A stretch of DNA of 64,000 bases. Source: Amoebophrya sp. A120. Its lineage: Eukaryota > Protista > Dinoflagellata. The stretch lies in assembly GCA_905178155.1 (NCBI GenBank), contig CAJINV010000010.1, positions 3,430,587 through 3,494,586 of the forward strand, written 5' to 3'. The number at the start of each line of letters is the position of its first letter. Position 1 is the stretch's first letter. Made by a program: the position numbers and the translations under genes. The notes beneath the pieces are model-generated. The model worked only from the letters and a program-made list of their open reading frames with translations. It ran no database searches and had not been told where the DNA came from. Positions 18,301 through 51,325 of the stretch are shown here, piece after piece.

Positions 18301-19659
18301 TTATACGAGTACGATACTTTTGCACAGGATATATGAGGGTGCACAACTCTCGCCCCTCCCTGTTCATGCTGTATGGCATGAACAGCAATACAAACACCAG
18401 CACACTTAGACCCTGTGCATGACAAATAACTCGAACCCCAAATGTTAAAAATTTGGAGTACTCAAGTACTGTTTGGGCAGCTTCAGAGCAATTTCTCATG
18501 CAAACAGTGCCACAAAGCAGCAACGAGATTGTGAACTTTGCATCACAATAAACACAAATCAGGGGGAGGGGGACGACTTGTGCACTCTCATATTTCTCAT
18601 TCTCGCAGCAGTCGTCCTCATTCGCATTCGCGATGTTTTTGTGGTCGGTGTCGGTGTCCGGGGTGGTGTGGGCCAGAGATTCGGTGGTTTCGGCCGACGC
18701 AGCAGAGCAGTATCAACTGTAAAAATGTCTGGGTCTGGAAGAATCCAACTTGTCATGCTGATTTTGAATTCTCAAAAAATCTGTATTGCATGAGCAGCAA
18801 AGAGAGTCCAAGTTTTGCTACACGGAAAGAGCATGTGTCAAGCGGTATAGGCATCAGGAAGCCGTCACAAAATCTGTGATGCTAGGGCATGCATCACAGA
18901 CATCAGGAGTCATGCAAAATGTGCATGACATACCTGGCAATCTTCCAGACCCAAACATTTTTACATTTGATAAGCAGGTTTGCTTCTCGATGAACTGGTT
19001 GCATTTCGTGATCGTGCCCGGCTTATGCATGGCAAAAGCATCGTACTAGTAGCAATGGCATCACAAATTTGCTGCTCAGCATGAGACGCCGAACTTGTCA
19101 TGCTGATTTAGCTCGAGAAGCAGATTTGTCATGCATGTACGACTAGGATAGTTTTGCACAGGATAGTGGTTTTTGGTCGGGGTGGTCGGGTGCAGATCCT
19201 GGTCTTGCTGCTCCATTTGCTCCACCTGCTTCTATCGCAAGAAAAAACTGTTTCACTGTGAACTTGTGATGCAGAAAATGCATCTGAGAAGTGTTTGTGT
19301 TGCTACACATGCAAGACAATGGATTTCTGGCTGTGTTTTCCCTCAGGAATCTCGCATGGCAAATTTCCTCTGTGATGTAGAGCAAACCTGTGATGCAAAA
19401 CCTGCAAAATCCTTACAGTGAAACATTTTTTTCTTACGATAGCTTCGCTACCTGGTGTATTAATTCTTGGAGTTCAGTTCCTAAGGAAGAAAGCAAATTC
19501 AGTTCCGCAAACTCTCTAGTCCCGTGGGAGAAGTGAGAGTGACAACCTCTAATGCATAATGACGCATGAGTAGAAACAAGAATTTGATACCGCAGTCTCC
19601 TCCACAGGCAGGGCGGCCACCGAGACGGCGGCCTCTTCCGGGACACCAGTTGCAGTCAT
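9386..19659 (-). CDS. Pentatricopeptide-repeat (PPR) protein with N/Q/G/A-rich C-terminal tail, about 31 introns
   Basis: Reconstructed PPR motifs PGAVTYGTLIKAYG, PNAVTYGCMLDACVK, TVLYTTIIKGFAK, NVVTYNSLIDVAVR, PDIITFSTLVKGFC, DEIMFNSLLDGCAK, PSCVTFSILVRLYA, PTRAVYSCLMKACAQ. About 22 TIR-type introns plus 9 GT-AG introns (9523-9655, 9758-9927, 10216-10441, 10507-10681, 14118-14283, 14718-14942, 15438-15568, 15925-16118, 19452-19590). Confidence 0.9.
9983..10185. mobile_element. Decayed introner
   Basis: TAT..ATA ends, weak TIR, direct repeat GACTG. Confidence 0.75.
10749..11058. mobile_element. Introner family I
   Basis: TIR TAT..AAAGGAAAAATCC..CCTCCC; direct repeat CCGCA. Confidence 0.9.
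11118..11374. mobile_element. Introner family A
   Basis: TIR with GTCTGGGTCTGGAA; direct repeat ACCCG. Confidence 0.92.
11554..11832. mobile_element. Introner family K
   Basis: Perfect TIR TATCCTGAGTAAAAACGTACCCACACCAGAGT; direct repeat TGCCA. Confidence 0.95.
11910..12060. mobile_element. Introner family B
   Basis: TIR; direct repeat TCCCG. Confidence 0.9.
12441..12705. mobile_element. Introner family A
   Basis: TIR; direct repeat CAGTG. Confidence 0.92.
12783..12934. mobile_element. Introner family B, eroded
   Basis: Left end GAT instead of TAT; flanks AAACA/AAGTA; frame restored (GST|SGANNG). Confidence 0.8.
13027..13331. mobile_element. Introner family J
   Basis: TIR TATTAC..TGAAAA.TGCCCCC; direct repeat CCAAC. 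Confidence 0.9.
13388..13608. mobile_element. Introner family F
   Basis: TIR GTGCACAACTCCCCCTCCC; direct repeat TGCGT. Confidence 0.93.
13681..13830. mobile_element. Introner family B
   Basis: TIR; direct repeat CTGCG. Confidence 0.92.
14346..14597. mobile_element. Introner family A (252-bp subfamily)
   Basis: Close copy of 2637-2888; direct repeat CATCG; splits PPR motif LPVD|EIMFNS. Confidence 0.94.
15065..15386. mobile_element. Introner family I
   Basis: TIR; direct repeat TTTCC. Confidence 0.9.
15709..15879. mobile_element. Introner family H (long hairpin)
   Basis: TIR of about 60 bp starting TATC.CACAGAAAAAAGC; direct repeat TCGGG. Confidence 0.93.
16249..16519. mobile_element. Introner family A
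   Basis: TIR; direct repeat CGGAG. Confidence 0.92.
16587..16740. mobile_element. Introner family G
   Basis: TIR core AAAT.TCCCGTACA; flanks CCGGA/CCGCA. Confidence 0.85.
17097..17651. mobile_element. Two family A introners in tandem at one target site (17097-17384 and 17390-17651)
   Basis: Three target copies CCCAG / CCCCG / CCCCG; the elements are separated by only 5 bp. Confidence 0.88.
17707..17859. mobile_element. Introner family B
   Basis: Direct repeat TCGGA. Confidence 0.87.
17899..18133. mobile_element. Introner family C-like
   Basis: TIR core GTTACATTCTCAAC.GTTACA; direct repeat ACCGA. Confidence 0.9.
18178..18592. mobile_element. Family F introner with a family B introner (18183-18331) nested in its terminus
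   Basis: Outer direct repeat TTTCT; inner direct repeat TATGA. Confidence 0.9.
18711..18972. mobile_element. Introner family A
   Basis: TIR; direct repeat AGCAG. Confidence 0.92.
19024..19165. mobile_element. Introner family B, direct repeat lost
   Basis: TIR present; flanks CGGCT/GTGGT; frame restored by removing element plus 5 nt. Confidence 0.8.
19233..19441. mobile_element. Introner family E
   Basis: Homologous to 757-974; direct repeat GCTTC. Confidence 0.92.
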
Positions 19660-26174: not shown

Positions 26175-29100
26175 TCATTGGTCGAGTGGTCCTCGTCCTG
26201 CCGCCCCCGCCTTCGCCTGTAATTTATTGTTCCTTTCCCGGAGAATCGCCGTCACGAGGCCCAGGTGCGGCGCCGCTTTCCGGTAGGCCGGCAACTCATC
26301 TTCGATTTTCGCAATGTTGCCCAACTTGTGCCCGGTTTCCGCCCTGCTGCTGCCCGCGTCTGTTCTTGCCTCCGCCGCTTCCTCCTCCATCGTCTTTACA
26401 TGCTCAGACAAAGTCTGAAAGTCCTCGCGCACACGGACGAGCGACCTGCCCCGCCAAATTTGGCTGTGCGCGTGCTTGGGCCGGCGGGAGAGATCTAGTA
26501 CCAGGGTGTTGGTGCGGAAATTGTGCTCGTTTTGCAAAGCGGCGCACGCCAAGTGCTGGATGTCGTGCATTCGGGTACTCAAAGATTCCAGCTGCTCCTG
26601 TAGCTCCGGATACGGCACCGAGTCCCAAAACGTGTGCAATTGGACCTCGGCGTCCTTCTTTGTGTAGAGGCTGGAACTGGGAAGCGCCTGCGCGTACTGC
26701 TCCACCAGGGGGCGCACCAGGACCATCTCCACGAACTCTTCGGTGTCCATATCTCCTGAGTCAAACGCGTGAAAGGCCCCGGTGTGGTTCACTTGCCACG
26801 AAGCCAGTAGCGGCAGCGCAAACACGCAGTAGCACAGCAGCAACTCGAATACAAAGGAGCACCGAGCCAGGTGGCGTCTACATTTTTCTTTCCGGAAAAA
26901 CCGTCTCTCCGCGGCCACCGCGTCCTCATCTTCCGAAATTTTTTTGTGTTCTGGCGAAAATAAATCCTGTTCTTCCTGATGCTCCGCACTGACTCTGTTT
27001 TCGATAACATCAGAAGTCCTCCTCCATTCAGGGCGAGCGCTAGAAGTTGCAGCAGGAGGCGGTGAATCATGTTGTTCTGAACGCGCCCTGAAAACGAATA
27101 AAACAAGCTGAAGGAAACTTAGCCCGACCCCAGACATATCAAATGCAAATATGTCTGGGTCTGGAAACTTGTAATGCTGGGCTGTGAGTAGTGAATGCTC
27201 TGTAACGTACAGGCAAGCATGAGAAATACTTGCGCGGCTTAGTGTAAGTGTTGCGTTTTTCGCATGACAAACTGCGTTTTTGGATGACAAGCAACAGGGT
27301 CTCTTCTTCCTTGGACACGCATCACAAGCTCTTCAGTCATGCCAGACAAGCATGACAAACCTTGTATCCTTCCAGACCCAGACATATTTGCATTTGATAA
27401 GACACAACGGCGACGCACAACACCAGGAGCCGCGCCCAAGTGATGGGTTCCCACGGCCGCGGCGAGGTTTGGTAATCCAGGCAACCCGAGTGCCACAGGT
27501 AGCCCCGGCGCGTGAGAAAATTGTCAAACAGATCCACCTATGAAATGTAAAAATGTCTGGGTCTGGAAGATCGCAGATTTTTGTCATGCTGTTTTTGCAT
27601 GACACGGAAGGTCTGGCATGGACGCCCTAGCATCACAGGTTTAGGTTACGCAATGCCTAATCCGCATGACAAATCCTCTATTCCGATGACAGAAAATGGG
27701 TAACTTTTGCTGCCTAAGCATGAGAGATTTCTGCGCGTTGTGAAATGCGCATCACAAGTTCGAATCTTTCCAGACCCAGACATATTTGCAATGCATACCA
27801 CCACGGTGGGGTCGGAGATGGCCGTGAGGTAGGTCAAGGGCATATGAAATGCAAATATGTGTGGGTCTGGAAGAATGCAGATTTTTATCATGCTGTTTTT
27901 GCATGACACAGAAGGTCTGTCATGGAAGCCCTAGCATCACAGATTTCGAGAACCTTCCGCCATGCCCAATCCGCATGACAAATCCTCCTTTTTGGTGACA
28001 GAAAATGCGCGCCTTTTGCTGCCTATGCATGAGAAATTTGTCTGTGTTGCGAAATTCGCATAACAAGTTCCAACCTTCCAGACCACCCAGATACATTAGC
28101 AATGCATACGGCACGTTCTCGCCCCAAAAGAGCTGCAGCCCCTCGAAAAGCACCAGCAGAGCACCCCCGGCCTGAGCGGAAAACGAGTGCAGCCGCCAAA
28201 AGACCTTCGCCGTGCGGGCCCGCGATCGCTTCCACCGGGTACTCTTGTTCTTGGTGCCAGCGTAAATTTGGTCTATCGAAGACCAGTATCAGCTGCAAAA
28301 GTGTGTGGGTCTCTGGAAGAATGCCAGACTTGTCCTGCAGGTTCTTTTCCATGACCCATGAGGTCTGGTATGTAGGACATAGCATGACAGATTCTGATGT
28401 GACAGTTCTATCATGCCTATCCTGCATGAGAACCTGCCTCTCGATTAGGTCAAAAGTGGGCAGCTTTTGGTAATCATGCAACGCAGATTCTTACATGATT
28501 CAGATTCAGCATGGCAAGTTGCTTTGTTCCAGACCCAGATGACATTATTGCATTTGATAACGAATCGGTCGGAATCACAAGAGAACAGCAGAAGGACGGG
28601 ACAATCAGCCAGATGGCACGCAGTATCAAAAGGGAAAATCCCCCCTCCCCATATCGAAAAGGAAATCTGTGATGCTGGGTCTGCGTACACAAATCAGATT
28701 TGTCTTGCAGTAGAGGACTCCACGCAGATCGCGAGCCTAGATAGGGGCCTTTTGGTGTAGGCGCGTAGCATGGTAGACGGCTGCCCCGTAGTCCTTACAG
28801 CATTTCAAATCGCCTGCATAGCGTGGCAGAGAGCCTGGACTTGCCTTCTAGCAAAACAGGCAAGATTTGTGGTCACAAATCTGCATCTCAAATTTTCAGA
28901 GGATACGTTTTCAATATGGGGAGAGGGGATTTTTTCTTGCAATACGCAGGCAAATTTCTTCCGGCGACGTCAGCTTCGGCAGCCCCGTATGAACTGCAAA
29001 AGTATCGCACTCGTCCAAATGCATGACAAATTCCCTCAGCATGAGAAATAAAATTTGTAATGCGGATTTACCTTGAGAAAAAAATTTGTAATGCTGCAAG

Positions 29101-32100
29101 ACTTGCATTCATACGAATACGATACTTTTGCGCAGCATACCCCGGATTGCCCCGCTCGCTCGCCTCCTCGGGCGCCGCCCATTGGCAGAAGGACCGGTAC
29201 GCGTGAAACGGGTACTGGTTCAGCAACGTGGCCACCATGTAGAGTACCAGGCACAGGGTAAAAATTTTGCCCTCGGCCGCTTCCGGGTTTTGGCACACGC
29301 TGGACAGTATGGATTGTAAAAAAGTCTGGGTCCTCTCCTGGAAACTTGTGATGCTGGGTGGCGTATCATGAAGAGGCCACAAATGCTGGCTCAGCATGGC
29401 AAGTTTCTGAGCTTGCTTCTAGGTTTTGCCTATTCTGCATGACAAACTGCGTTTCTGCATGACAGCAAAATGGGGCTCTTGGGAAACGTGCATGACAGAT
29501 TTAAGAGTCATGCCAGACTAGCACGAGGAATCTCGCAATCTCCCAGACCCAGACATTTTTGCATTTGATAGACAGCGTGCCGCTCCTCAGAAACCCTTTA
29601 GGCAGCTGCACCTCCTCGACCGGTCTTTCCTCGAAGCCCGGTGGCATAAAAACTGAGGTGTCGTCTTGCTTCTCCACTCCATCTCCGACTCCTTGGCTTA
29701 CAACAACTTCGCCCAGCAGCGAGGTGCCTTTCATCGTACTAGCATCATCTTTTGCGGTTGTTGATGATGCACCACCTGACTCGGCCGTCTGAACAACTTC
29801 CAGGTGGTGACCAAAAGTAGACTCCGCACGAGGACCTCCTTCGCGTTTCTTCAAAAGATCCTCCAGTTTATTCGGCGCTTTCGTTCTCTTCTTTGCGCGG
29901 CGGCCTGGCTCCTCAGTTCTTGTTTCCTCGTCAACATCGCTTGCACCACTCTGCAGGGCGGAGTCCGGAGCGTTCATACTCAGCACTGGTAAATCTTCGT
30001 CATCGACATGCGGCTCGTTTGTCGATTCACCCAGAAAGACACTGCCTTGACTGAAGCTCCCCTCCAGTCTGCTGCTGGTGCTCGTCTCGATGTCGTCGTG
30101 ATCGACGTCCACTGCAGCCTCACTCCCCTCTCCTCGTCTGCTCGCCGTTTTGATGTTCATCATATTTGAAGAAAGGTGACCTTGACCTCCACCCCGCCTG
30201 CTCTTGCGCACCAGCAGTTTCCGCACGATTGTTTCGGGAAAAAACACGAGCTTCCAGGGAAGCAAAGTCCCGAAAACCACGGCTGTATAACCCGCGACCA
30301 AGAGCAAGAACCCCAGCACCCCGTCCGTCCGCGTGGAACCGACGAAGGCGGACTATGGGAGCGTCAGGCTTGAAGTCAACGAAGTTGTTGAAATGATTTG
30401 CCATGCATAAAATGCAAGGCATGAAGTGCCTGTCTTGCCGGGATGGCAAGTGAGGCAGATTGTGAGCCTATCTAGGGTTTGGAATAGAGCTGCTAAAGGA
30501 GCATGACAGAAGCAGTATTCTGTGCCCAAACAGCATGACAAATTGGATCCGGGTGCTCCGAAAATTTGTCATGCGCCGCTTGATAAGTGGGCTTCCAACT
30601 GGTATCGGCTTTATGCATGACAAACTATTTCAACTCTGACGATTTCGATCCTGACACCCCCATACGGACAGCAGAAACCGGATCAGGCTGAGCGTGACCG
30701 CCCCGCACCACCGCACTCGCTGCAGCGCGTCGTGGAAAAAGTCGTGGTGCTGGTCCAGTTTGTCCTTCAACTGCGCGTATGGATTGCAAAAATGTCTGGG
30801 TCTGGAAACTTGTAATGCTAAAAGTGAATGGCACACGCACTGCAATACGCAGCCACGCATGACAAATTTTTTGGCTCCTATCCCAAAGAAAAAAGCCGAC
30901 AGGTCAGAAAAAAAATAATTAAATAATAATTGTTATCGTCAACAATAAAAGCAAAACAAAACAACAAAAAAAATTGCCGCCATACCATGCGGATTAGCTT
31001 CAGGACAGATCAGCAATCCGCGCGAATCATGGTGGGGCTGCTATTGTCAACAATAAAAGCAAAACAAAACAACAAGAATAAACTGCCGCCATACCATTCG
31101 GATTAGCTTCAGGACAGATCAGCAACCCGCGCGAATCAGGGCGGGACGGCGATCGCCCGCTTTTTTTATTTTTGCGACGAATTTCGCCCATTCGCGCCAT
31201 ACCGTGCGGGCTGGGTTTCGTAGGGGGTTGCCGGTTTCGCCAATCCGCACGCCACGGCGCCCGCAGTCGGTTTTGCGGCTTTTTGCAGATTTTCCATGTT
31301 CGCGCCATAGCGTGCGGGCTGGCTATCTGGCGAAGCTGCCGGCTTCGCGAATCCGCACGGCACGGCGGTCGCAGTTAGTTTTTTAAATTTTGGCGAGTTT
31401 TCTTTGTTTCGCGCCATACCGTGCGGGCTGGGCTTCGTACGGGGTTGCCGGCTTCGCCAATCCGCACGGCACGGCGTCCGCCGTCGGTTTTGCGACTTTT
31501 TGCAAATTTTTGCTGTTCGCGCCATAGCGTGCGGGCTGGCTTTCTGGCGAAGCTGCCGGCTTCGCAAATCCGCATGGCGAGGCGGCCGCGGTTAGTTTTG
31601 TGAATTTTGGCGATTTTTTTCCTTTCGCGCCATACCGTGCGGGCTGGGCTTCATAAGAGGTCGCCGGCTTCGCCAATCCGCACGGCACGGCGCCCGCAGT
31701 CGGTTTTGGGACTTTTGGCGAATTTTCTTTGTTCGCGCCATACCGTGCTGCTGGCTTTCTGGCGAAGCTGCCGGCTTCGCGAATCCGCACGGCACGGCGG
31801 CCGCAATTAATTTTGTAAATTTTGTCGGGCTTGTTCCTTTCGCGCCATACCGTGCGGGCTGGCCTTCGGGCGAAGTTGCCGGCTTCGCGCATCCGCATGG
31901 AACGGCGGCCGCAATTAGTTTTGCGAATTTTGGCGAGTTTTTTGCCTTCACGCCATACCGTGCGGGCTGGCGGTCGCAAGAGGGTGCCGGCGTCGCGAAT
32001 CCGCACGGCACGGCGATCGCAATTATCGCTTCAAAATAGGAAGGCAGGAGCTTGGAAACCGTCGAAGGCTTTGCCAGCTTTGCGAAAGTTCCCGAATGTT

Positions 32101-35100
32101 CGGAGTCGCCGGATTCAGAGGCGGCGAGGCGTCAAACCCTCGCCAAGCTTTTCAACATTTGGGAATGCCAAAAATGCGACCCCCTCCTCTATCTGCGGAA
32201 GCTGGCGCACTTAAAGCAAATTGCTCCCGCTTCTGGTAATTTTTGCCGAGTTCGTCCGCGGATACTTTCGAAGGCTCGGAATCGCTTCAAAATAGGCAGG
32301 CAGGAGCCTGGGAGCTGTCGGAGGCTTTGCCAGCTTTGCGAATATTCCCGAATATTCGGAATCGCCGGAATCAGAGGCGGCGAGACGTCAAACCCTCGCC
32401 AAGTTTTTCAACGCTTGGGAATGCCAAAAATGCGACCCCCGCCTCTATCTGCGGAAACTGGCATCCTTAAAGTAAGTGGCTTCCTCTTCTTCTGGAAACT
32501 TTTGCCCGCCGAGTGTGTCCGCGGATCCTTTCGAATATTCGGAATCGCTTCAAAATAGGCAGGCAGGAGTTTGGAAATTGTCGAAGGTTTTGCCAGCTTT
32601 TCGAATGTTCTCGAATCCTCGGAATCGCCGGAATCAGAGGCGGCGAGGCTTCAAATCCTTGCCAAGTTTTTCAACAATTGGGAATGCCAAAAATGCGACC
32701 CCCGCCTCTATCTGCGGAGGCTGACATACTCAAAGCAAATTACTTCCTCTGCTGGGAATTTTTGCCGAGTTCGTCCGCGGATACTTTCGAATATTCGGAA
32801 TCGCTTCAAAATAGGCAGGCAGGAGTTTGGAAACTGTCGAAGGTTTTGCCAGCTTTTCGAATATTCTCGAATATTCGGAATCGCCGGAATCAGAGGCGGC
32901 GAGACTTCAAATCCTTGCCAAGTTTTTCAACAATTGGGAATGCCAAAAGTGCGACCCCCGCCTCTATCTGCGGAGGCTGACATACTCAAAGCAAATTACT
33001 TCCTCTGCTGGGAATTTTTGCCGAGTTCGTCCGCGGATACTTTCGAATATTCGGAATCGCTTCAAAATAGGCAGGCAGGAGTTTGGAAACTGTCGAAGGT
33101 TTTGCCAGCTTTTCGAATATTCTCGAATATTCGGAATCGCCGGAATCAGAGGCGGCGAGACTTCAAATCCTTGCCAAGTTTTTCAACAATTGGGAATGCC
33201 AAAAATGCGACCCCCGCCTCTATCTGCGGAGGCTGACATACTCAAAGCAAATTACTTCCTCTGCTGGGAATTTTTGCCGAGTTCGTCCGCGGATACTTTC
33301 GAATATTCGGAATCGCTTCAAAATAGGCAGGCAGGAGTTTGGAAACTGTCGAAGGTTTTGCCAGCTTTTCGAATATTCTCGAATATTCGGAATCGCCGGA
33401 ATCAGAGGCGGCGAGACTTCAAATCCTTGCCAAGTTTTTCAACAATTGGGAATGCCAAAAATGCGACCCCCGCCTCTATCTGCGGAGGCTGACATACTCA
33501 AAGCAAATTACTTCCTCTGCTGGGAATTTTTGCCGAGTTCGTCCGCGGATACTTTCGAATATTCGGAATCGCTTCAAAATAGGCAGGCAGGAGTTTGGAA
33601 ACTGTCGAAGGTTTTGCCAGCTTTTCGAATATTCTCGAATATTCGGAATCGCCGGAATCAGAGGCGGCGAGACTTCAAATCCTTGCCAAGTTTTTCAACA
33701 ATTGGGAATGCCAAAAATGCGACCCCCGCCTCTATCTGCGGAGGCTGACATACTCAAAGCAAATTACTTCCTCTGCTGGGAATTTTTGCCGAGTTCGTCC
33801 GCGGATACTTTCGAATATTCGGAATCGCTTCAAAATAGGCAGGCAGGAGTTTGGAAACTGTCGAAGGTTTTGCCAGCTTTTCGAATATTCTCGAATATTC
33901 GGAATCGCCGGAATCAGAGGCGGCGAGACTTCAAATCCTTGCCAAGTTTTTCAACAATTGGGAATGCCAAAAATGCGACCCCCGCCTCTATCTGCGGAGG
34001 CTGACATACTCAAAGCAAATTACTTCCTCTGCTGGGAATTTTTGCCGAGTTCGTCCGCGGATACTTTCGAATATTCGGAATCGCTTCAAAATAGGCAGGC
34101 AGGAGTTTGGAAACTGTCGAAGGTTTTGCCAGCTTTTCGAATATTCTCGAATATTCGGAATCGCCGGAATCAGAGGCGGCGAGACTTCAAATCCTTGCCA
34201 AGTTTTTCAACAATTGGGAATGCCAAAAATGCGACCCCCGCCTCTATCTGCGGAGGCTGACATACTCAAAGCAAATTACTTCCTCTGCTGGGAATTTTTG
34301 CCGAGTTCGTCCGCGGATACTTTCGAATATTCGGAATCGCTTCAAAATAGGCAGGCAGGAGTTTGGAAACTGTCGAAGGTTTTGCCAGCTTTTCGAATAT
34401 TCTCGAATATTCGGAATCGCCGGAATCAGAGGCGGCGAGACTTCAAATCCTTGCCAAGTTTTTCAACAATTGGGAATGCCAAAAATGCGACCCCCGCCTC
34501 TATCTGCGGAGGCTGACATACTCAAAGCAAATTACTTCCTCTGCTGGGAATTTTTGCCGAGTTCGTCCGCGGATACTTTCGAATATTCGGAATCGCTTCA
34601 AAATAGGCAGGCAGGAGTTTGGAAACTGTCGAAGGTTTTGCCAGCTTTTCGAATATTCTCGAATATTCGGAATCGCCGGAATCAGAGGCGGCGAGACTTC
34701 AAATCCTTGCCAAGTTTTTCAACAATTGGGAATGCCAAAAATGCGACCCCCGCCTCTATCTGCGGAGGCTGACATACTCAAAGCAAATTACTTCCTCTGC
34801 TGGGAATTTTTGCCGAGTTCGTCCGCGGATACTTTCGAATATTCGGAATCGCTTCAAAATAGGCAGGCAGGAGTTTGGAAACTGTCGAAGGTTTTGCCAG
34901 CTTTTCGAATATTCTCGAATATTCGGAATCGCCGGAATCAGAGGCGGCGAGACTTCAAATCCTTGCCAAGTTTTTCAACAATTGGGAATGCCAAAAATGC
35001 GACCCCCGCCTCTATCTGCGGAGGCTGACATACTCAAAGCAAATTACTTCCTCTGCTGGGAATTTTTGCCGAGTTCGTCCGCGGATACTTTCGAATATTC

Positions 35101-37763
35101 GGAATCGCTTCAAAATAGGCAGGCAGGAGTTTGGAAACTGTCGAAGGTTTTGCCAGCTTTTCGAATATTCTCGAATATTCGGAATCGCCGGAATCAGAGG
35201 CGGCGAGACTTCAAATCCTTGCCAAGTTTTTCAACAATTGGGAATGCCAAAAATGCGACCCCCGCCTCTATCTGCGGAGGCTGACATACTCAAAGCAAAT
35301 TACTTCCTCTGCTGGGAATTTTTGCCGAGTTCGTCCGCGGATACTTTCGAATATTCGGAATCGCTTCAAAATAGGCAGGCAGGAGTTTGGAAACTGTCGA
35401 AGGTTTTGCCAGCTTTTCGAATATTCTCGAATATTCGGAATCGCCGGAATCAGAGGCGGCGAGACTTCAAATCCTTGCCAAGTTTTTCAACAATTGGGAA
35501 TGCCAAAAATGCGCCCCCCGCCTCTATCTGCGGAGACTGACATACTCAAAGCAACTTCCTTCCTCTCCTGGAAATTTTTGCCGAGTTCGTCCGCGGATAC
35601 TTTCGAATATTCGGAATCGCCCGAATCAGAGGCGGCGAGGCTTCAAATCCTTGCCAAGTTTTCCAACGCTTGGGACTGCCAGAAATGGTATGGCGCGAAA
35701 GAAAAAACCCGCCAAAATTTACAAAACTAATTGCGGCCGCCGTGCCGCGCGGATTCGCGAAGCCGGCAGCTTCACCAGAAAGCCATCCCGCACGCTATGG
35801 CGCGAACAAAGAAAATCCGCCAAAAGTCGCAAAACCGACTGCGGGCGCCGTGCCGTGCGGATTGACGAAGCCGGCAAACTCTTACGAAGCCCAGCCCGCA
35901 TGGTGTGGCGCGAAAGGAAAAAACCCGCCAAAATTTACGAAAGTAATTGCGGCCGCCGTGCCGTGCGGATTTGCGAAGCCGGCAGCTTCGCCAGAAAGCC
36001 AGCCCGCGCGGTATGGCGCGAACAAAGGAAATTCGCCAAAAGCCGCAAAACCGACTGCCGGCGCCGTGCCGTGCGGATTGGCGAGGCCGGCAACCTCTTA
36101 CGAAGCCCGGCCCGCACGGTAAAGCGCAAAAGGAAAAACTCGCGAAAATTTACAAAAATAATTGCGGCCGCCGTGCCGTGCGGATTCGCGAAGCCGGCAG
36201 CGTCGCCAGAAAGCCAGCCCGCACGGTATGGCGCGAACGTAGGAAATTCGCCAAAAGTCGCAAAGCCGACTGCGGGCGCCGTGCCATGCGGTTTGGCGAA
36301 TCCGGCAAACTCTTACGAAGCCCAGCCCGCACGGTATGACGCGAAGCAAAAAAATTCGCCAAAATTTGCAAAACTAATTGCGACCGCCGTGCCGTGCGGA
36401 TTCGCGAAGCCGGCAGCTTCGCCAGAAAGCCAGCCCGAACGCTATGGCGCGAACGTAAAAAATTTGAAAAAAATCGCGAGACCGACTGCGGGCGCCGTGC
36501 CGTGCGGATTGGCGAAGCCGGCAGCCCCCTTCGAACCCCAGCCCGCACGGCATGGCGCGAATAAGCGAAATTCGCCACAAAAATAAAAAAGGCGGGCGAT
36601 CACCGTCCCGCCGTGACTCGCGCCGATTGCTGATCTGTCCTGAAGCTAATCCGCATGGTATGGCGGCAATTTTTTTTGTGGTTTTGTTTTGCTTTTATTG
36701 TTGACAATAACAATTATCATTTAATTATTTTTTTTCTGACCTGTCGGCTTTTTTCTTTGGGATAGCTCCCATGTCTTACGTATTCCGCATGGCAAACTGC
36801 GTTTTTCCATGACAGGTAAGCGGGCCTTTTCGTGCCTATGCAACACAGATTCTCGAGACATGCCAGACAAGCATGACAGACTTGCATTCTTCCAGAGCCA
36901 GACGCTTTTGCATTTGATAGCGAATTCTCGACCTGCAGATGGTGCAGGTTTTCCGCAAACTCCTCCATTTTCCGCTCCAAATACCGAACTCGGTCCTCGA
37001 GGTGTTGTGGTGGAGCAGGAGAATTTGTCCTAGAAGTAGAACGGGCTTCTACTCCATCACCGTGGTCCTCCGCTGGCAGGGTCGTCGCCCACCTGCTCGT
37101 CGGAAACGATGGATCTTCAACATGCGGCTCCGAGTAGAAGAAGTCGGGAGATGTTGAAGCGGAGTTGTCCTCCTGGCGCAGTGGTCCCGTTCCACTTCTC
37201 TGCAGGACCGAGGAGCTTCTAATGGAGCCAGCAACTACATGCGATTCCGGTGTCTCCTCAGAATAGAAGTACTCGACGTCCCCTTGATGATGATCTTCGT
37301 CGTGTGTTCCTTCTTTATCGCCACTTGAAGATGGCAAGTTGTCGAAACCCCCATTTTCGCCTACATCGAGGAAAACCAGAGAACTACTACCGGTAGTAGA
37401 GCCTCGTGCAGAATGACGATGCAGCTGGGGCGATGAATTCCTCTTGCTGCTCTCATGCACAACATCATCATGCTCAGCCACGTGAACAGCTGCCGTGGTG
37501 GTGGCTGCGGCGACGAGGAAAATGATCCCAGGCGTGAAGGAGATCATGGGCGTAGTAGTTGTTTTAGTTTTTCTCATGCTTGAAGAAACGTTGCGGGTAC
37601 TTACATTACGATTACACCAAATATCATCCTCCGGGCCGTTTGTACGACCTGCTCCGCTCCATTTGTAGCTCTTTGGTGGAAACAAAACCGTTGAAAATTC
37701 CTGTTCGACGTCGACCTTTCGCTTTCGTGACCTCGAGAAGAAAAAGTCGCGCCGGAACGGCAT
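26175..37763 (-). CDS. Multi-pass membrane protein of unknown family, 9 TIR introns (one is 6.1 kb); may extend to 25880
   Basis: Continuous frame VENS|QLKDKL...LLS|AFVGST...GTL|SSVCQN...NPG|LPKL...CL|RAIW...TDS|SSIDQ...NVP|LTYL...VV|DLFD...VVS|GVGLSF; several hydrophobic segments. Confidence 0.78.
27137..27399. mobile_element. Introner family A
   Basis: TIR; direct repeat AGACA. Confidence 0.92.
27539..27797. mobile_element. Introner family A
   Basis: TIR; direct repeat CCACC. Confidence 0.92.
27843..28108. mobile_element. Introner family A, close relative of 27539-27797
   Basis: TIR; flanks GGGCA/CGGCA. Confidence 0.9.
28287..28559. mobile_element. Introner family A
   Basis: TIR; flanks ACCAG/ACGAA. 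Confidence 0.87.
28624..28944. mobile_element. Introner family I
   Basis: TIR; direct repeat CGCAG. Confidence 0.92.
28988..29139. mobile_element. Introner family B
   Basis: TIR; direct repeat CCCCG. Confidence 0.92.
29308..29570. mobile_element. Introner family A
   Basis: TIR; direct repeat GACAG. Confidence 0.92.
30354..30664. mobile_element. Introner family L
   Basis: TIR TATGGG.G.GTCAGG; direct repeat CGGAC. Confidence 0.88.
31170..32025. repeat. Left-arm subrepeats of about 107 bp (alternating, about 215-bp dimer)
   Basis: Recurrent TTCGCGCCATACCGTGCGGGCTGG...AATCCGCACGGCACGGCG. Confidence 0.88.
32025..35690. repeat. 256-bp tandem satellite, about 14 copies
   Basis: Near-identical ORFs recur every 256 bp from 32571 to 35387; the edge copies are diverged. 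Confidence 0.96.
35690..36585. repeat. Right-arm subrepeats, inverted relative to the left arm
   Basis: Recurrent CGCCGTGCCGTGCGGATT...CCAGCCCGCACGGTATGGCGCGAA. Confidence 0.88.
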
Positions 37764-38535
37764 ATGTCAAATTCAAAAGTGGTGACACGGACTTTTTGCT
37801 CTGCGCATGTTGTATGTGAAAGTATGTAAGTAACGATTCTTGTTTCCACGACCCATTTTGGAACAGCCCACGACTAAGAACCCCGCTGCCTTTTGGACGA
37901 ACAATGAGAATGAAGATCCACACTTAATTATTTCGAGACCAAGTAGCTACACAAAACTAGCTCCGACGATCGACGAGAACGACATGATCACAAGATGCAG
38001 CCCGCCCCACACGCAGCAGCTAATACCGACCTGTCCCTGTAGTAAAATAGAATCAAAATAAAAGCATCACGAAGATTTCTTTTCGGCAACGAACGACGAT
38101 TTTCTATATCGGTCGACTCCGAGATAATTAATTACTTACTTACTTATCATCGAACTTAGCAGCAACACAACGACGCACAAGGACTCGACAGCATTGCATT
38201 TCTAAGTGTTGCAGCCGGACCGGCAATGCGTAGTTACTGGTCGTGATAGAACTGCGCCCTACTCTTCTTGCAACCGCCTTTTTTTATCGCAGGGACCGCG
38301 GCGTATCAGCCAGGTACTCGGATAACGATAAGCTGACCAGCTTTAGCATTTCTTGACGAATCTTGGATTATCTCCCTTGCCAGTAGAACTAGAATTTGAT
38401 GTTGTATGCTAAATTTTCATTCCTGTAAGTGTGTATCCTGATGCTCCAATGTGCTTATCACTTGTGAAAATCATTTTCGAAGCAGTGCAGACACGACGAC
38501 GTGCTGCGCCCAGTTGTACAAACTTAGTGCCACAA

Positions 38536-41500
38536 TCAATCGCTCTTGATCCTCGCGTAGATGTAGTGGAGAAACCTCGAGCAGCTCCAATAGGTTATCG
38601 CTCCCATCATCAAGAATATCCCGTACGCGATTACCAAGGAGTAGAGAAAGAAAAAGGATCCCTGCAGAAAGGAATCCATTAGCGACGCTTTGAAGTAGGA
38701 GATGCAGTAGAGGTAGAAAAACACCGCCAGGCTGCTCCCGGAATAGAAAGACCTCCACCACCACTTGTAATTCTCGGCATTCAAAGTCCAGTAGACGAAG
38801 AGCACGGACAGCAAGGCAGACACCATGATGGTCAGAACCAAAGTGAGGAGGAGTATCCCAAAAACTCGGTAGCTCGCGTGGCCTGTAACAATGCACAACT
38901 CCCCCTCCCCCTCATTTGTCATGCAAAATACCAAATTCACACCTTGCACGTAAGCACTGCTAGCATGACAAAGTTTGGAACGTCAAATAGTACTACAATC
39001 CGCATGCAGATTTGTCATGCGAAAGCCCATTTTCTGCTGTTGCTTGTGTTGCTGTTCATGCAACACAAATGAGGGGGAGGGGGAGTTGTGCCCTGTCATA
39101 TGGCCCCAAACGGAGTCAAAGATGTAGTGCAGTTCGGCGTACATGGAGAGGAAAGGGAGGCCGCCGCAGCAAATATACTGAATCAGCACGGACCGGGACC
39201 TTGTGAGGAGGGTTTCGATAAAGTTTTGATGTCTTGTTTATTTCGCGCTTTGATATGGGGTGTGGGTGCAACATCAACATGAGCATGACAAGACAAAAAT
39301 GAAATTTTTTGTGTAGTATCTACTTCGTAATAGGATCATCTTCGCAAGACGAGAAATTCACACGGAATGAAAAGCTGCTTCATATAGAAGTACCAAGTCT
39401 TCGCGTGCGGCGGTATGTGCCTCTCCAGCTTGTTGGTCTTGCAGGGAAAGTAGCTGGCAATTTCGCTGGTTTCGAAGTATTTCTTAATCACCACCTGTCT
39501 CCCCAGCACGCCCCCAACCACCGTCAGGGGGATGGTCACACAGATCCATACGAACAGCAGCAGCACTATCGTCGCGAAGGGAACGGCCACGGTGGAGGAG
39601 TAGAAGATCGCGATGGTGTTCAGCACGGACCAAATTACGAAACAGGGTAAAGCGAACATCAGACTGGTGAGTAAGATGTTTAAGGTCCACCTTTCGCCGT
39701 TCAACACTTGTATCCCACAGAAAAAGTAATAGAGACGCAAGTCAGATAATTTGTAATGCAAAAATAATCCGCAGAAAAATCTGTCATGGACGACCCCATA
39801 GCATGCTGTTTAGGGTACGCATTTTTCTGTGTATTCATTTTTGCATTACAAATCTGCCCTGTCTGCTTTTTTCTGGGGGATAACTTGGTACAAAGACCCG
39901 GACACGTAGCCCGCCACGACCGCGCTGCAAACGTAGAAAAACGTATCGCAGAAAAAAACTATGTGAGTGTAAGTCTGTGATGCAGAAAATGCAAAACTGC
40001 TACACTTGTCATGCTGAATGTGCGTCATGGGCTACTTTCATACGTGTCTCCACTACTACTACCTGCGCATGAGAGGTTTTCCCTGCAATGGAAAGCGAAT
40101 TTGTGAGGCTGCTCTTCCTACAAAGTTACACTTACACAGTTTTTATCCTGCATAAAACGCCATGGAGCTGATCACCGCGTTGTTGTGGTAGTGCCCGAAA
40201 CACCCGAAAAACACTACAGAGAGTGACATGATCAGAATTTGCGTGCCGGTTCCCACCATGGAGGCGAACACCGTGCGGAACTTCGGCGGGCGGAACACGT
40301 CGGCATGGAGGAGCTTCTATGCAGTGCAAAAGTATCGCACTCGTATAAATGCATTACAAATTTCCTCAGCGTGAGAAATAAAATTTGTAATGCGGACTTG
40401 CCTCAAGAAAAAGATTTGTAATGCAAGACATGCATTTATACGAGATACGATACTTTTGCAGAGGATAGCTTCCAGCCGGTATGGGACATAAACTCAAAGG
40501 TGTTGTTATCAATCGCAAATATGTCTGGGTCTGGAATATAATTCTGAGACTTGTCATGCACGTTTTGCATGAGCCATGATGTCGGTGATGCATGCCCTAG
40601 CATCACAGGCTTTTTGAGGGATTCTTGATGCCTATTCCGCATGACAAATGCCCTCTCCGCGTAGCAAAAATTAGATTTCTTTTGCTGCTCATGCAACACA
40701 GATTTTTTTGACATCCAAATGCAGCATCACAAGTTGCATTCTTCCAGACCCAGACATATTTATTGCACTTGATAGTTGTCTAAATCGTCGAAGTCAGAAA
40801 CCAAATCGTCCAACGTTTTGGCCTATCAAGTGCAAATATGTCTGGGTCTGGATGAGCAGAAGTGCAGATGTTTGTAATGCAGGTTTTGCATGACCCAGAG
40901 CGTCTGGCATGCAGGGACTAGCATCACCGGTTTTTCGCGGGGGGCTTCGTGATGCCCCCTACTCTGCATGAGAACAAGTCCGCTCTCATCATGGCCAAGA
41001 ATATGAGACATTAATTTTTGCTGTTCATACAAGACAAATTTTTGTGTGAATTGAAATGTGCATCACAAGTTGCAGCATTCCAGATCCAGACAAATTTGCA
41101 ATGCGTATAGCCTGGCCGCCGCCGTCCGCGTTGGCGTTGCCGATTACGTTGTACTATGGATTGCAAAAATGTCTGGGTCTGGAAGATTGCAACTTGTCAT
41201 GCTAAATCCGAATCATGCAAAAATCTGTGTTGCATGAGTGCCAAAAGCTGTCCACTTTCGACCAAGTTGGGAGGGAGCTTCCCATGCAGGATAGGCATGA
41301 AAGAGACCTCACAAACTCTGTCATGCTAGGTCCCGCATTCCGGACCTCAAGGGCAAGGTCACACTCTTCCAGATCCAGACATTTTTGCATTTCATATGTA
41401 CTGCGGCTTCTTACTCGTTGTCGTCTTGCTTTCGTTGCCCATGGCAGTGTTGAACCCCTCGACGAAGGCGTCGGCTAAGTCAGATTGGAGGTTACGAATC

Positions 41501-44500
41501 AGGACGGAAATCACCACCACGGAAACCACACCCATGACGGCGATGGCGTTCAAAATTCCGAACCAGTGGACCTGAAAAAGTAGTTTTTGTCATGCTTCCC
41601 CGGGTTGCATGACAAAGAGGTCTTGTCATGCTTTGTTTTGCATTACAAATTTATGTACCTTCATATGCGCTCGTCCTTCCCTTCCCTCCTCCTCGGACAC
41701 AATTCCGGCGTAGTTGTTATCGTATGTAAAAACGTCTCCACCCTTGTAAGTAATGCAAAACTGCATGCTGAAAATGTTTCTCATGCGAAGCCCCATGAGA
41801 AGCATTGCCTAGTCGTGTTTTGGAATTTGTCATGCTCCAATCTGCATCATATACGAGATCTGTGATGCTGCTGAACTACCTCAAACAGCACTACACTACG
41901 AGTCCAAATTTGTCATGCAAAACGGCCAAAACATGTGGACTTGTCTAGCCGATTCCCCATCTTGACTATGGGATCGTGGGGACGTTTTTACATAGGATAG
42001 TTGTGCATGATTTGGTACTCCAGCGCCTCGTCCCGGGTCATCCCGTAGTCCGTGTGCGGAAACCAGTGCACGGACATCGTGAACTGGACCTTCATATGCA
42101 TTGCAAAAGTATCGCACTCGTATAAATGCATTACAAATTTTCTCAGCATTAGAAATAAAATTTGTAATGCGGATTTACCTTAAGAAAAGGATTTGTAATG
42201 CATGATTGCAATTACGTACGAGTACGATACTTCTGCACAGGATACTTCAACGACTTTTTCATGTTCGTGTTCATTTTCGCATCCCCATCTATGCATCTTC
42301 AGAAAAGTTATCGCACTACTAGAAATTGCCTTCCAACTTTTTCCAGATGGCATGATTTTTAATGCTAATTTTCTTCAAACAGAGGAAACTTGTCAGCATG
42401 CGTCATCGATGCAAAAATTAGCACGAGTACTATGCGATACTTTTGTAGAAGATACCCTCAGGGAAAGAACCGCTGAAGGAGAAGTATAACTTGCTCAAGC
42501 GTTACAATCTCAAACGTTACAGTAGAATATAGAAATCTGTGATGCAAGAAGTGCATGAGCTAACCTACTCTCACAGGGTTGCGCATGACAAGTTTCGGAG
42601 CCCCAAACCGCACTAGAATCTGCCGAGATCTGTATTGCAGAAAGTGGAACGCTCCGCGATTCTGTCATGCCTAGCATGCAAGACAAAATCCAGATTCTAT
42701 TGTAACGTTTGAGATTCTATCGTTTGAGCGGGTCATATGAAGAGCGGGATGTCGGGTAGCTCCGTCATGTCGGATAGAAGCGGCGAGGTCATCTTCACCT
42801 GCATGATCTCCCCCTTGCTGTGCGTGACCTCAAAGTCGTAGTGGTTGCGCAGGTAGTACTTGGATTTCTTTTTCAGATCCTCCTTCTCCTCTTCCGACAA
42901 ATTCATGTCCTGCTCGTTGTCAATCAGGCCCTCCCTTTTGTGGTACAATTCCGAGACGTACACGCTCCACATCTTCTCGGCCAGATTTTGCTTGTGGAAC
43001 GGCGTTATGGACTGCAAATATCTATGTCTGGGTCTGGAAACTTGTGATGCTAAGATGTGAATGGTGAGCGCAGCCGCAGTGCAATACGCCGTCAAGCATG
43101 ACAAATCTTTGGGCTGCTAATCTGTTTCGTTTTCCGTATGGCAAACTGCGTTTTTGCATGACAGGCAACCAGCCCTTCTCCTGCTCATGCATCACAGATT
43201 TATGAGTCATGCCAGCCTAGCATGACAGATCTTGCATTCTTCCAGACCCAGACATATTTGCAGTTCATAGGCGTCTCTTCCGGGCGGAGGCTGCTTTCCG
43301 CGATCTCCTTGTCCCCTTCCTTCTCCAGTTCTTCATAGTGCTTGGCGTTATTTATCCAACGAAAAAAGTGTTTCACTGTGATAAATTTGCAAGATCCGCA
43401 TCACAAGTTTCTTTACACATGACACAGAAAATTTGTCATGCGCGCTGCCACAGGGAAAACACCCTCCACGAGTCAAGGCCGTGCAGGTGTAGCAACACAA
43501 AAAGTTCTGTGTTCCATTCTATGCATCACAAGTTCACAGTTTTTTCTTTCGATATTATTCGGGGACAGCTTAATGCCGATGAAATCCGAGACGGGAAACT
43601 GATCCACAGAGAGCTCGGCGATGTACCTGGTGGTGTCGCGTGTTCTTTATGTTGTATGTACAACACGTGAAGATGATGCAAGATAGACCTAAACTTGCCA
43701 TTATGGTGCTGGATGATCACATGCATCGTTATGTGCTGCTATTCTGGTACTACGTGCCTTGATGTTGACCACGTGCACGTGCTAGGTTCATTTCTCTGGT
43801 GCCACCATTCATCAAAACAATTTTGTGGTGCCTCCAAAGTAGTACAGAACAAGTGGTCCTCCATGTAGTAACTAAAGCAAGTAAGTACCACTCATCAATC
43901 CCCTTTCTTAGCATCGCGATCTCCCAGGGATTCAGCTCGCGCTCGCAAATAACCTTGGTCTTGGTCTCATACACAAACGCGGAACCCGGTTGACTCGCCT
44001 CTACCTTCCAAAACTGGGAAGGCAGGCGTTTGAAATCTAGCTGGGAAGAAAGCAGCCGGTCGCCCTGGAGTATCTGGCCCAAGGTCATAAACTGCGGGAT
44101 CGGCAACTCGGGGGCGCAGACTAACGGGAAGTCGTAGTACCTGTTGGTGATGTGATATCATAGCATTTGATGTTGACAAACACCCACAACGCGGAAAACA
44201 TGTAGCATGTGCAGCTGCAAAATTTTCATATCCAAAAACTTGTCCAACGTGTCGCATAAAATACCCCAGACGAACTACTGCTCTTACCTGTATGTTTCCT
44301 GCGGGTTTTCGCTCGGCCAGATTTTGTTATCAAAGCGAAAAAAAGCCACCACCCCATAGAAAACAAGAAATTTCTGTTGCTGGATTTCTGTACACAAATC
44401 AGGGCTGTATTGCACATGGCGCTTGGAGGCACTTCCTAAGCCTGAATGATGGGTATGCAGCAAGCTAGCAGTTAGGCAGGGCAGACACCTTTGCAGTATG

Positions 44501-46026
44501 CAAAAGCGCATCACAGATTGGCTGTGGAATGCGCCAAGCGGCTCCCATTTGCCCCATATGCAAGACAGACCTGATTTGTGGTCACAAATCAGCATCACAA
44601 ATTTCCTTCTCGGTATGGGGAAGAGGGATTTTTCCTCACAATACTTGTTGACAAAAACCCGCACGTCATTTGCGTAATCCTTGACGTAAGATTTTGCGGA
44701 TTCCAGATACTGCGTATCCGGTAGAAGTTTGTGGATGAATTTGGTGTAGACGTGCGACTCTGGGATGCTATCAACTGTAAAAATGTCTGGGTCTGGAAGA
44801 TTCTGACACTTGGTTGGTTGGTTGGGTAGCGCCTGTCGCCGGTGCAGGTCCCATCCTCCATCGATTGCGATCCGGAGTAGCCGGAACACGAGGCCCTAGT
44901 GGCACAACTTGTCACGCACGTTTTGCATGAGCCACGATGTCTGTGATGCATACCCTAGCAATACAGATTTTTTGAGGGCTTCTTGATGCCTATTCCGCAT
45001 GACAAATGCCTTCTCAGCGTAGCAAAACTTGGGTTCTCTTTGCTGCTCATGCAATACAGACTTTTTTAGAATCCAAAATCAGCATGACAAGTTGGATTCT
45101 TGCAGACCCAGACATTTTTACGGTTGATAGATGCCATCGTGGTCGTAATCCGCCTCCAACACCCCGTCGCGATCCACATCGGACGTGTGGTGCTCGCGCA
45201 AGTGCTCGACTTCCTCGCTACTCGGATTCCCGCCCAGTAAGGACACAAGCTCCATGTCCTGTTGCGTACTTGTACCGTCGTTGTCTGCCATCATATTGCC
45301 ACCCACCTCCACATCGTCACTCAGCGCGCGACGGTATTCCGATTCCGTTCTGGGAACCTTCAAACCTGATGCGCTAGGAAAACTTCTACCATGCTCTTGT
45401 TTTTGTCCTGCTGTCGTGAGCGAATTGTCTGTAGCATAATTTGCGCCGACCTGGTCTGTTGCAGCCTGGTTGTGCCTACTGTTTGAAGATGAGTCAACTG
45501 CATCCTCGCTTGGTGCTCCTGCCGCCGCTGCACCATGTGAAGATCCTCCTCTTTGGTCCGTTGTCCCACTGCTTGGAGCGGCTGCATCCTCTTGCAACCG
45601 CCTTGGCAGTGCACCTGCGTCCCGACCGGCTCCGGATGTTGAAGTACTACTTCTAAATCCCGCATCTTCGACACCAGCAGCTTGCCGCACCAGATTTCTT
45701 TCCTCTTCAGCGGCCCGGAGCTGTGGCGGTGGTGCGTCGCCTGAGGCGCTGGCGCTGCTACTGGGAAGATTAAGATTATGTTTGTCTTCCGACACCAGCG
45801 CCTGGGCCGCTGCTCCTGGTTCATTATCCGCATCGGAAATTCCCCCGGCCTGTCGGTCCGCGGTGCAAGAGTAAAAATGAGAAAAATGCCCATGAAACTG
45901 CAGTCCGGCGGTTGCGAGAGCCACCACCCGTTGCCGTCGCCTGCTTGAGGAGGCAGATGTCGGTAGTAGGGACGTCGGCTTGCAGCTCCTTTGTGATCTC
46001 CGCATTTTTTCCTCACCCATTTTCAT
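38536..46026 (-). CDS. Transmembrane 9 superfamily (TM9SF/EMP70 nonaspanin) protein, 15 TIR introns plus several GT-AG introns
   Basis: Motifs YYDFPLVC, LGQILQGDR, VHWFGILN, GWKLLHADVFRPP, GGLPFLSMYAELHYIFDSVW, AENYKWWWRSF and C-terminal IYARIKSD. Confidence 0.92.
38884..39100. mobile_element. Introner family F, inverted relative to 13388-13608
   Basis: Left end TGT; direct repeat TGGCC. Confidence 0.9.
39711..39882. mobile_element. Introner family H
   Basis: Homologous to 15709-15879; direct repeat ACTTG. Confidence 0.92.
39944..40154. mobile_element. Introner family D-like
   Basis: Direct repeat AAACG. Confidence 0.87.
40318..40467. mobile_element. Introner family B
   Basis: Direct repeat GCTTC; splits GWK|LLHADVFRPP. 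Confidence 0.93.
40507..40774. mobile_element. Introner family A
   Basis: Direct repeat GTTGT. Confidence 0.9.
40824..41107. mobile_element. Introner family A
   Basis: Flanks TGGCC/TAGCC; right end GTA. Confidence 0.85.
41155..41396. mobile_element. Introner family A
   Basis: Direct repeat TGTAC. Confidence 0.92.
41718..41999. mobile_element. Introner family K
   Basis: Direct repeat GTTGT; inverted homolog of 52950-53229. Confidence 0.9.
42095..42244. mobile_element. Introner family B
   Basis: Direct repeat CTTCA. Confidence 0.92.
42290..42454. mobile_element. Introner family B-like
   Basis: Flanks CCATC/CCCTC. Confidence 0.83.
42485..42737. mobile_element. Introner family C
   Basis: Homologous to 5624-5942; flanks AGAAG/TGAAG. 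Confidence 0.9.
43006..43269. mobile_element. Introner family A
   Basis: Direct repeat GGCGT. Confidence 0.92.
43353..43554. mobile_element. Introner family E
   Basis: Direct repeat TTATT; inverted homolog of 757-974. Confidence 0.88.
44328..44643. mobile_element. Introner family I
   Basis: Flanks TTTGT/CTTGT. Confidence 0.87.
44769..45129. mobile_element. Introner family A carrying a 94-bp insert
   Basis: Direct repeat GATGC. Confidence 0.9.
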
Positions 46027-47360
46027 CGTCGACCGATACCTTTAGAACGGCGCAGGAGCTTCGCGGTCATTAAAAACAGCCCAGGCGGAGGTCGACGTCG
46101 TGCTGGTGGTGGTGGTGTACTTACACACTCTGTCTAGATCGAAAAATGTTACCTCCACGAGTTGTAGTACTAGCACAAGCGGACCGCATTTTTGTAGAAC
46201 TTGATGTGGTTGTATGAAAATCTTGTACTACTTCTTACCGCAAACTACACTTCTCGAAATAATGAAGACGGCTACTGTACAAGAGAGGTGGACAACATGA
46301 CGAAACCATCATAAGACCTCATCCAAAAACGATCGGACTAAAAAGGAGTTTTGTTTGATGAGCATACTAGTACTCAAGAACTACACGTATACACTCTTGT
46401 CAACCTACTGAAACACACGAACCTCGCAGCTTGATACAAATTCAGAACATGGCGTGAATGTGAAATAGATCTGGCATCACTGAGGAATGGAACCGCATTG
46501 GACGATCAACATCACATCTAAATCGCTGCACCTTACTATAGCTTCTGCAGCAAGAAAGAATTTTTCATGTTTCCAGTAAAGATGGCGGAGCCCATAGCAT
46601 CACTGACAGCTACCTGGTAAAGTTCGTCGTAGCAATAGGAACACAGGACCTCACTCATCTTCAAAGGAAGAAATCCGTCACAGACATAGCCTGCCGGTCC
46701 ATTTCGGAAAATCCTCGGCAGAAACGGCAAAGCCGTTTTCTATTCCAATTTCGTTTTGTTTTTCGTACAGAATCATACAGTCAGCCATTTATAATTGTGG
46801 TGCATTTTCAAAAAAAATTCTAATTGTTGCGGAAAAAAATTCCAAATCACAAGACTGGTAGTATCTATCTCTCTTCAATACTACGCATTTCTAATCGGTG
46901 CTTGTCTTTACTCCTTCGGTAAAAAAGACGGGCATTGTCTTCGTGACACGCTGCGTCCTTCACAGCGCCACTTTCTTCCCGCTCCTGTTCGGTCGCACTC
47001 TTCGCCGTTACTTGATTTTCCAGACAATCAGAATCCCTCTTCCCCGCATTGTTCCTTTCGTGGTTCCATCATGTTAGTTCTAGTTGAGTGATGTTCTAAT
47101 TTCTGTTTCTCATCTATAAAAAGTCACAACATCAATCTTCTACCCGTTCTTTAATTTGCTTGCTCCATAAGTGATGCTGTGCCATCTATGTCTATGCTTC
47201 GCACACGATAAAGCAGATTGTTGCAGGTAGTGTTTCTTTAATTTTGAAGCAAGATTCTTTTCCAAGACATGAATTTTCCTAATAAAATCAGGAGATCCGT
47301 CCTTCTGCACGGGCAGCAACTCCCAACCTTGTTTTTCCGCACGGCGACAAGCTCTGTCTA

Positions 47361-51286: not shown

Positions 51287-51325
51287 AATGTGCTCCTCAC
51301 CCTCTGAGAGGGTGAGGAGCACATT
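51287..51325. repeat. Perfect palindrome with 19-bp arms
   Basis: AATGTGCTCCTCACCCTCT G AGAGGGTGAGGAGCACATT. Confidence 0.92.

Follow-up and report, generated by a model that had tools for sequence, protein, structure and literature searches.

A foldback transposon nested in an introner forms a 6.1-kb intron in a coding gene of Amoebophrya sp. A120: a model of end-defined removal

In the marine parasite Amoebophrya sp. A120, the genes abound with small transposons that function as introns. In the window analyzed here, a stretch of 64,000 nucleotides of its genome, the gene at 26175-37577 has nine introns, all of them TAT...ATA elements, and the one separating exons 1 and 2 is an introner that hosts a second, much larger element (Table 1). 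Removal of the nine elements, each with one copy of its flanking repeat, yields a frame of 1,035 aa with the sequence of P0001, a public Amoebophrya sp. A120 protein, and the giant intron is therefore already part of the public gene model; the exon upstream of it showed a 100% match to this protein. P0001 has a signal-like N-terminus and several hydrophobic segments, and a coiled-coil-like stretch spans the junction. No Pfam family matched it above the cut-off, the homologue searches returned P0001 itself only (1 of 5,240 and 1 of 476 candidates), and none of the 155 candidate stretches from the metagenome scans was confirmed. The preliminary description of this DNA had reported no decay near the junction, a claim that holds only in the sense that the 1,035-aa frame is open and that contigs and window did not differ at any of the 956 nt compared.

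Table 1. Features of the giant intron and of its host gene (window coordinates; a dot marks features given without strand).
Feature	Position	Strand	Remarks
Exon 1	36920..37665	-	1,035-aa frame, first ATG 37577; X1 contig
Segment absent from mature RNA	30773..36919	-	6,147 nt, comprising the outer element and the 5-bp repeat downstream of it; cut slides by up to 3 nt
Outer family-A introner	30778-36919		6,142 bp including insert; family-A terminal inverted repeats
Outer introner, 5' arm with ~30-bp terminal inverted repeat	36770..36919	-	family-A alignment
Inner target-site duplication, copy 1	36765..36769	.	5/5
Inner non-autonomous foldback element (putative)	30879..36764	.	5,886 bp; TAT-N7-AAA ends; multi-copy in DNA-type run X5
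Inner inverted arm A	35687..36764	.	108-bp subrepeats at 35687-36561, 8.1 copies
Inner central tandem array	32025..35620	.	256-bp unit x 14, 97% matches
Inner inverted arm B	30879..32025	.	109-bp duplication 30934-31145; 108-bp subrepeats 31191-32015
Inner target-site duplication, copy 2	30874..30878	.	5/5
Outer introner, 3' arm with terminal inverted repeat	30778..30878	-	family-A alignment
Outer target duplication, downstream copy, leaves with intron	30773..30777	-	3/5 match
Exon 2	30665..30772	-	108 nt; X1 and X2 contigs
Next introner, other family	30354..30664	.	311 bp; absent, together with 5 nt, from X1 and X2 contigs
Remaining host gene: 8 exons, 7 more TAT...ATA elements between	26175..30348	-	computed splice = P0001; RNA on 30250-30348 only

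The whole 6.1-kb block is missing from spliced RNA, as supported by assembled contigs and by the public protein. A contig of 3,920 nt in run X1 corresponds, without other letters, to 37665-36920 at record positions 1-746, then to 30775-30665 at positions 744-854 and to 30348-30250 at positions 855-953, and behind 30775 the loose contig end carries, in X1 as well as in X2, the window sequence from 36923 onward. In these cDNA-derived contigs the exon join, which was read from the coordinates of one contig record and from loose ends in two runs and not from one continuous alignment, skips 6,147 nt, i.e., the element plus 5 nt, and gives the peptide LQVENS/QLKDKL that had been predicted for an in-frame junction. 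The lack of a spliced join or separate transcripts for the two halves had been named beforehand as outcomes contrary to splicing; the exons are joined in the X1 and X2 contigs, and separate transcripts were rejected. Rejected as well was the use of a canonical AG 2 nt downstream as the acceptor, by which 6,149 nt would be skipped instead of the 6,147 missing from the contigs. Runs X1-X3 are contigs from one sample, taken as RNA by inference, no run being annotated as RNA, and contigs drop rare forms; X1 was judged to be cDNA because eight introns of a neighboring gene are skipped in it and depth is zero in three intergenic bins. Exon 2 is uncovered in X3, and the cover of X5 is interrupted at 30675-30749; such contig holes prove nothing. 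The raw-read runs X8, X9, and X10 gave 2, 2, and 0 reads at the locus, respectively, the sequence not being in those runs. In the three RNA-type runs aligned at 30850-30990, inside the block, none (0/3) had RNA cover.

The outer element is a family-A introner interrupted in its interior. Other family-A copies align at their start with its left 101 nt and at their end with its right ~155 nt. After subtraction of the insert and of one 5-bp repeat, it measures 251 bp and reaches 80% identity, with no large gap, to the copy at 43006-43269 (best of the 24 window copies compared). It grew because a second transposon was inserted into it. The earlier observation that the giant element sits within a family-A introner is borne out by the alignment of both arms to family-A ends and by the separate duplication of the insert, and the expansion of a ~255-bp introner to 6.1 kb, put at about 24-fold, agrees with the measured increase from 251 to 6,142 bp (6142/251, ~24.5-fold). 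That removal tolerates such an expansion, as had also been proposed, is supported by the RNA contigs and by P0001. The terminal bases of the outer element are complementary at 24 of 30 positions, and the element has the TAT-N7-AAA inverted ends, the 3-5-nt repeat class, the multiple copies and the removal at sites other than GT-AG of the A120 introners. Its 5-bp repeat is imperfect (3/5), while that of 17 of the 19 family-A copies tested is perfect; five further copies scored 4, 3, 5, 4, and 5 out of 5. The last 5 nt of exon 1 are the upstream copy of this duplication and are retained in the mRNA.

The inner element has fully complementary ends (30/30 terminal bases) and a perfect 5-bp duplication. 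The span 30879-36769 named in the preliminary description comprises the element and one 5-bp repeat, the element proper ending at 36764. Its arms, ~1.1 kb each, are complementary at 915 of 1,036 aligned bases (arm B vs. arm A). Among the units of the central array that were compared, nine of 12 are identical, so their copy number may be misassembled and the intron may in truth be longer or shorter than 6.1 kb. The inner end occurs in the DNA-type run X5 beside a second, different flank and with high summed depth, which indicates that the insert belongs to a multi-copy family. No Pfam family was found in the three insert ORFs scanned, no Rfam match was obtained, and the inner end had no match in the metagenome scans. 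The possibility of an autonomous transposon was rejected; the insert encodes no recognizable protein. The insert combines the end motif of the A120 introners and a 5-bp duplication with long inverted arms made of tandem subrepeats, as in foldback elements, and has no transposase. Foldbacks of the Mutator/FB type generate target duplications of 9-11 bp, unlike the 5 bp found here. On its sequence features, the insert is best described as a non-autonomous, foldback-shaped member of the TAT...ATA group with 5-bp duplications. Its ends match those of a 171/172-bp introner family, with copies at 15709-15879 and 39711-39882, at 26 of 30 bases (next best 19/30 among the 62 ends compared), and judging from this similarity the small introners and the giant insert are likely to represent one transposon lineage.

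Other parts of the window offered further observations on these elements. The window is densely populated by short TAT...ATA elements with inverted ends and 5-bp repeats, and a scan for them returned 60 candidate pairings, a few of which are due to chance; two long pairings, 10749-16740 and 56071-60637, with 11/16 end matches, were set aside as possible chance products. The family-A copy at 44769-45129 has ~100 extra interior bases with respect to the copy at 18711-18972, with no evident TAT...ATA ends on the extra part. Two family-A copies (2637-2888 and 3210-3461) lie 321 nt apart in inverted orientation, are 93% complementary and could pair in the transcript, skipping the exon between them. 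The region 45130-61600 has few introners and long open frames (e.g., one of 1,144 codons between stops at 53084-56515), in contrast to the left half of the window, where introners are dense.

An EMP70/TM9SF-family gene on the minus strand (38322-41573 and beyond) neighbors the host gene, and one contig skips eight of its introns, seven of the element type and one GT-AG. At six of the eight joints a listed element is skipped together with 5 further nt, one involves a 5-nt repeat with similar ends, and the last is the GT-AG intron; introners with unrelated interiors and lengths of 150-284 bp are thus skipped by one rule. The family-A copies at 40507 and 41155 have opposite orientations, as judged from their interiors only, and both are skipped in one contig, which argues against a strand-specific interior signal. 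The 39711-39882 copy of the 171/172-bp family is spliced on its own. At the two RNA-supported joints with mismatched repeats the upstream repeat copy is retained, and the permitted donor offsets are 0 to -3 at the giant intron and only 0 or -1 at 40824; if one rule holds for both junctions, the cut falls at 0/+5 or at -1/+4. P0001 is consistent with retention of the upstream copy at a third mismatched site. None of the four possible cuts of the giant intron is GT-AG or GC-AG and none ends in AG, while one has a GC donor. Introners with mismatched 5-bp repeats occur in the window at 27843-28108, 28287-28559, 40824-41107, 42485-42737, and 56311-56572; such repeats fix a cut position that perfect repeats otherwise hide, and at 27843-28108 the two copies differ, synonymously and hence without a trace in P0001, at the position next to the 5' end, by which offsets 0 and -1 can be told apart.

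We assign a probability of about 0.6 to end-defined excision of the whole block, with optional inside-out removal of the insert. According to this model, a single type of transposase that acts on TAT...ATA ends and produces 5-bp staggered cuts would have inserted both elements. In the transcript, the cuts would be set by the paired terminal repeats: on the 5' side at the element's end or 1 nt ahead of it, and on the 3' side 5 or 4 nt beyond it. The excision process would ignore the interior, hence the tolerated length, and would be the same that removes the ordinary 150-320-bp introners of the genome. In a share of the molecules the insert is likely to be excised alone, leaving a normal 251-nt introner, which is predicted to fold like other members (24.9 expected pairs vs. 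17.1-30.1 in eight others). This step would be optional because both outer ends are intact, and the insert is itself a likely substrate because its ends match the 171/172-bp family, whose 39711 copy is spliced alone. Pairing of the ends is a prediction of the folding model, and the data are just as compatible with a protein that recognizes both end motifs; the same end-defined reading also covers a spliceosome modified so as to be guided by the ends.

A one-step removal, in which the insert is never a substrate and its ~1-kb stem folds away, holding the outer ends as close as in an ordinary introner, appears unlikely. The preliminary description had suggested that the foldback brings the outer ends together, and in the predicted fold of the whole intron the insert does pair with itself, being closed right at its ends by an 85-bp helix, with 1,026 long-range pairs in total and 29 of the 35 outer terminal bases paired. 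However, the outer ends also paired in 3/3 controls with shuffled inserts (25, 21, and 29 pairs vs. 29 in the native fold; three shuffles only), under an energy model that puts little penalty on distance, and the fold can therefore not show that the foldback is needed. The match of the insert ends to a spliced family also speaks against a single step. In its favor, an intermediate lacking only 30879-36769, proposed earlier as a check, was not seen in the contigs examined, which would not be expected to show one.

The sequential, twintron-like route, the other suggestion of the preliminary description, is plausible insofar as the insert has intron-type ends, but its intermediate was not seen and the route need not be obligatory, the outer ends being uninterrupted. 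An obligate twintron, in which the outer introner could be removed only after the insert had been cut out, is accordingly quite improbable. The insert has the better ends of the two elements and a perfect duplication, and its transcript is complete while the outer end is still 101 nt away from being transcribed; on the other hand, neither outer end is interrupted, the family-A copy at 44769, a putative intron, keeps intact ends despite its ~100-bp interior insertion, and A120 introns reach 35 kb.

Less probable again is that the mRNA derives from cells with a 251-bp introner allele, the insertion being recent or polymorphic, or that the assembled length is wrong. The RNA-type and DNA-type runs are indeed different samples, no RNA contig was seen to cross from the outer into the inner element, and the array of mostly identical units makes the assembled length soft. 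Against this, a 69-nt DNA contig of X5 corresponds to 30839-30907 without differences, at a depth of 69.9 (flank 43.4), and spans the outer/inner junction with 40 and 29 letters, just below the 31-letter bridging threshold; no letter of the RNA contigs deviates from the window, and the perfect duplication and matched ends of the insert speak against a misjoin. Removal by a conventional spliceosome through canonical or recursive splice sites, with the inverted ends incidental, is very improbable, since the absence of AG at the possible cuts (0/4) and the splicing of family A in both orientations outweigh the presence in A120 of most spliceosomal proteins and of U2, U4, U5, and U6 (in the text of PMC7789003), the GT-AG intron of the neighboring gene and the single GC donor.

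The A120 introner elements described in the text of Farhat et al. (2021; PMC7789003) have inverted ends of TAT, 7 nt and AAA, direct repeats of 3-5 nt, multiple copies and RNA support. The same source gives an average of 240 nt for the non-canonical introns and 35,152 bp for the longest annotated A120 intron, states that two thirds of A120 introns lack GT-AG ends and that U1 snRNA was not found, and proposes ends joined by a hairpin; canonical introns and U1 are reported for another Amoebophrya in PMC12005148. Both elements of the giant intron fit this end motif, while their nesting, and the two mismatched repeats that narrow the cut, are features beyond the description in the text of PMC7789003. 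No account of nested introners in A120 was found in the literature searched, and the word "nested" is absent from the main and supplement text of PMC7789003 and from the main texts of PMC12130899 and PMC9860276. In Gozashti et al. (2025; PMC12130899), family 38 is filed as Ginger, with a 5-bp TSD and TA/TA termini, and the satellite-bearing families 25 and 86, kb-sized TIR elements (automated lengths 1,619 bp; 1,474-5,627 bp), are listed as intron-generating. In that source, small families yield alignments 4-24 kb wide, a hint of common long members, although such summed widths can arise without any single copy being that long. The inner element has the 5-bp TSD and TA/TA termini given for the Ginger-like family 38; no recognizable protein was found in the three ORFs scanned (0 Pfam matches). 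Given the 35,152-bp intron and the kb-sized, satellite-bearing TIR introner families, length alone is not new.

Plastid twintrons of Euglena are introns within introns, possibly removed from the inside out, in which the inner intron splits an essential signal and the order is forced. Fungal stwintrons, the subject of PMC8469720 and PMC9024468, likewise consist of an intron within an intron and may be removed inside-out, in an order again imposed by the split signal. The giant intron resembles both in that one intron-type element lies inside another, but the insertion is interior and the outer ends are whole, so that no order is forced, and it lacks the U2-type GT-AG ends of stwintrons. Nested or merged introner elements in Micromonas, spliceosomal and with GT/GC donors, are mentioned in the text of Verhelst et al. 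(2013; PMC3879977); the introner within an introner is common to both cases, whereas the sites are non-canonical here and the insert is 23 times its host element. Nonconventional introns of euglenids are presented in the text of PMC11282704 with TIRs, TSD-like repeats, non-canonical ends, lengths of up to several kb and a CAG...CTG motif, and they parallel the giant intron in repeats, ends and length, in another lineage and with another end motif.

By analogy, the nearest known mechanism is SOS splicing, in which, according to the text of Zhao et al. (2025; PMC12779559), DNA transposons are removed from mRNA through pairing of their inverted ends, rarely at GU-AG, in an imprecise reaction that leaves indels and involves the factors AKAP17A, CAAP1, and RTCB. 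The predicted pairing of the ends and the orientation independence of family A would fit such a process, unlike the dominant product, which restores the frame at every joint seen, in contigs that drop rare variants. Taken further, the locus may tentatively be regarded as a non-canonical nuclear twintron, in which a U1-less machine guided by end pairing would excise any TAT...ATA transposon with its downstream repeat precisely and recursively, so that a whole superfamily would be invisible in RNA even with a nested 6-kb foldback, as a precise counterpart of animal SOS splicing; we hold this broader proposal to be possible rather than probable.

The giant intron is an introner-type giant within an introner; support for its splicing comes from RNA contigs and from the public gene model. 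The surprise is limited, as transposons in introns are common, nested introners are known from Micromonas and the intron was already in the public model, and the value of the locus lies more in the tests that it permits: it would represent a natural test case for the removal of the unusual A120 introns, recursive or in one step, and for the exact cut. That the process tolerates a 24-fold increase in length and an interior of foreign origin points to the ends as determinants, and end-defined removal would explain the persistence of large transposons inside the coding genes of a compact genome.
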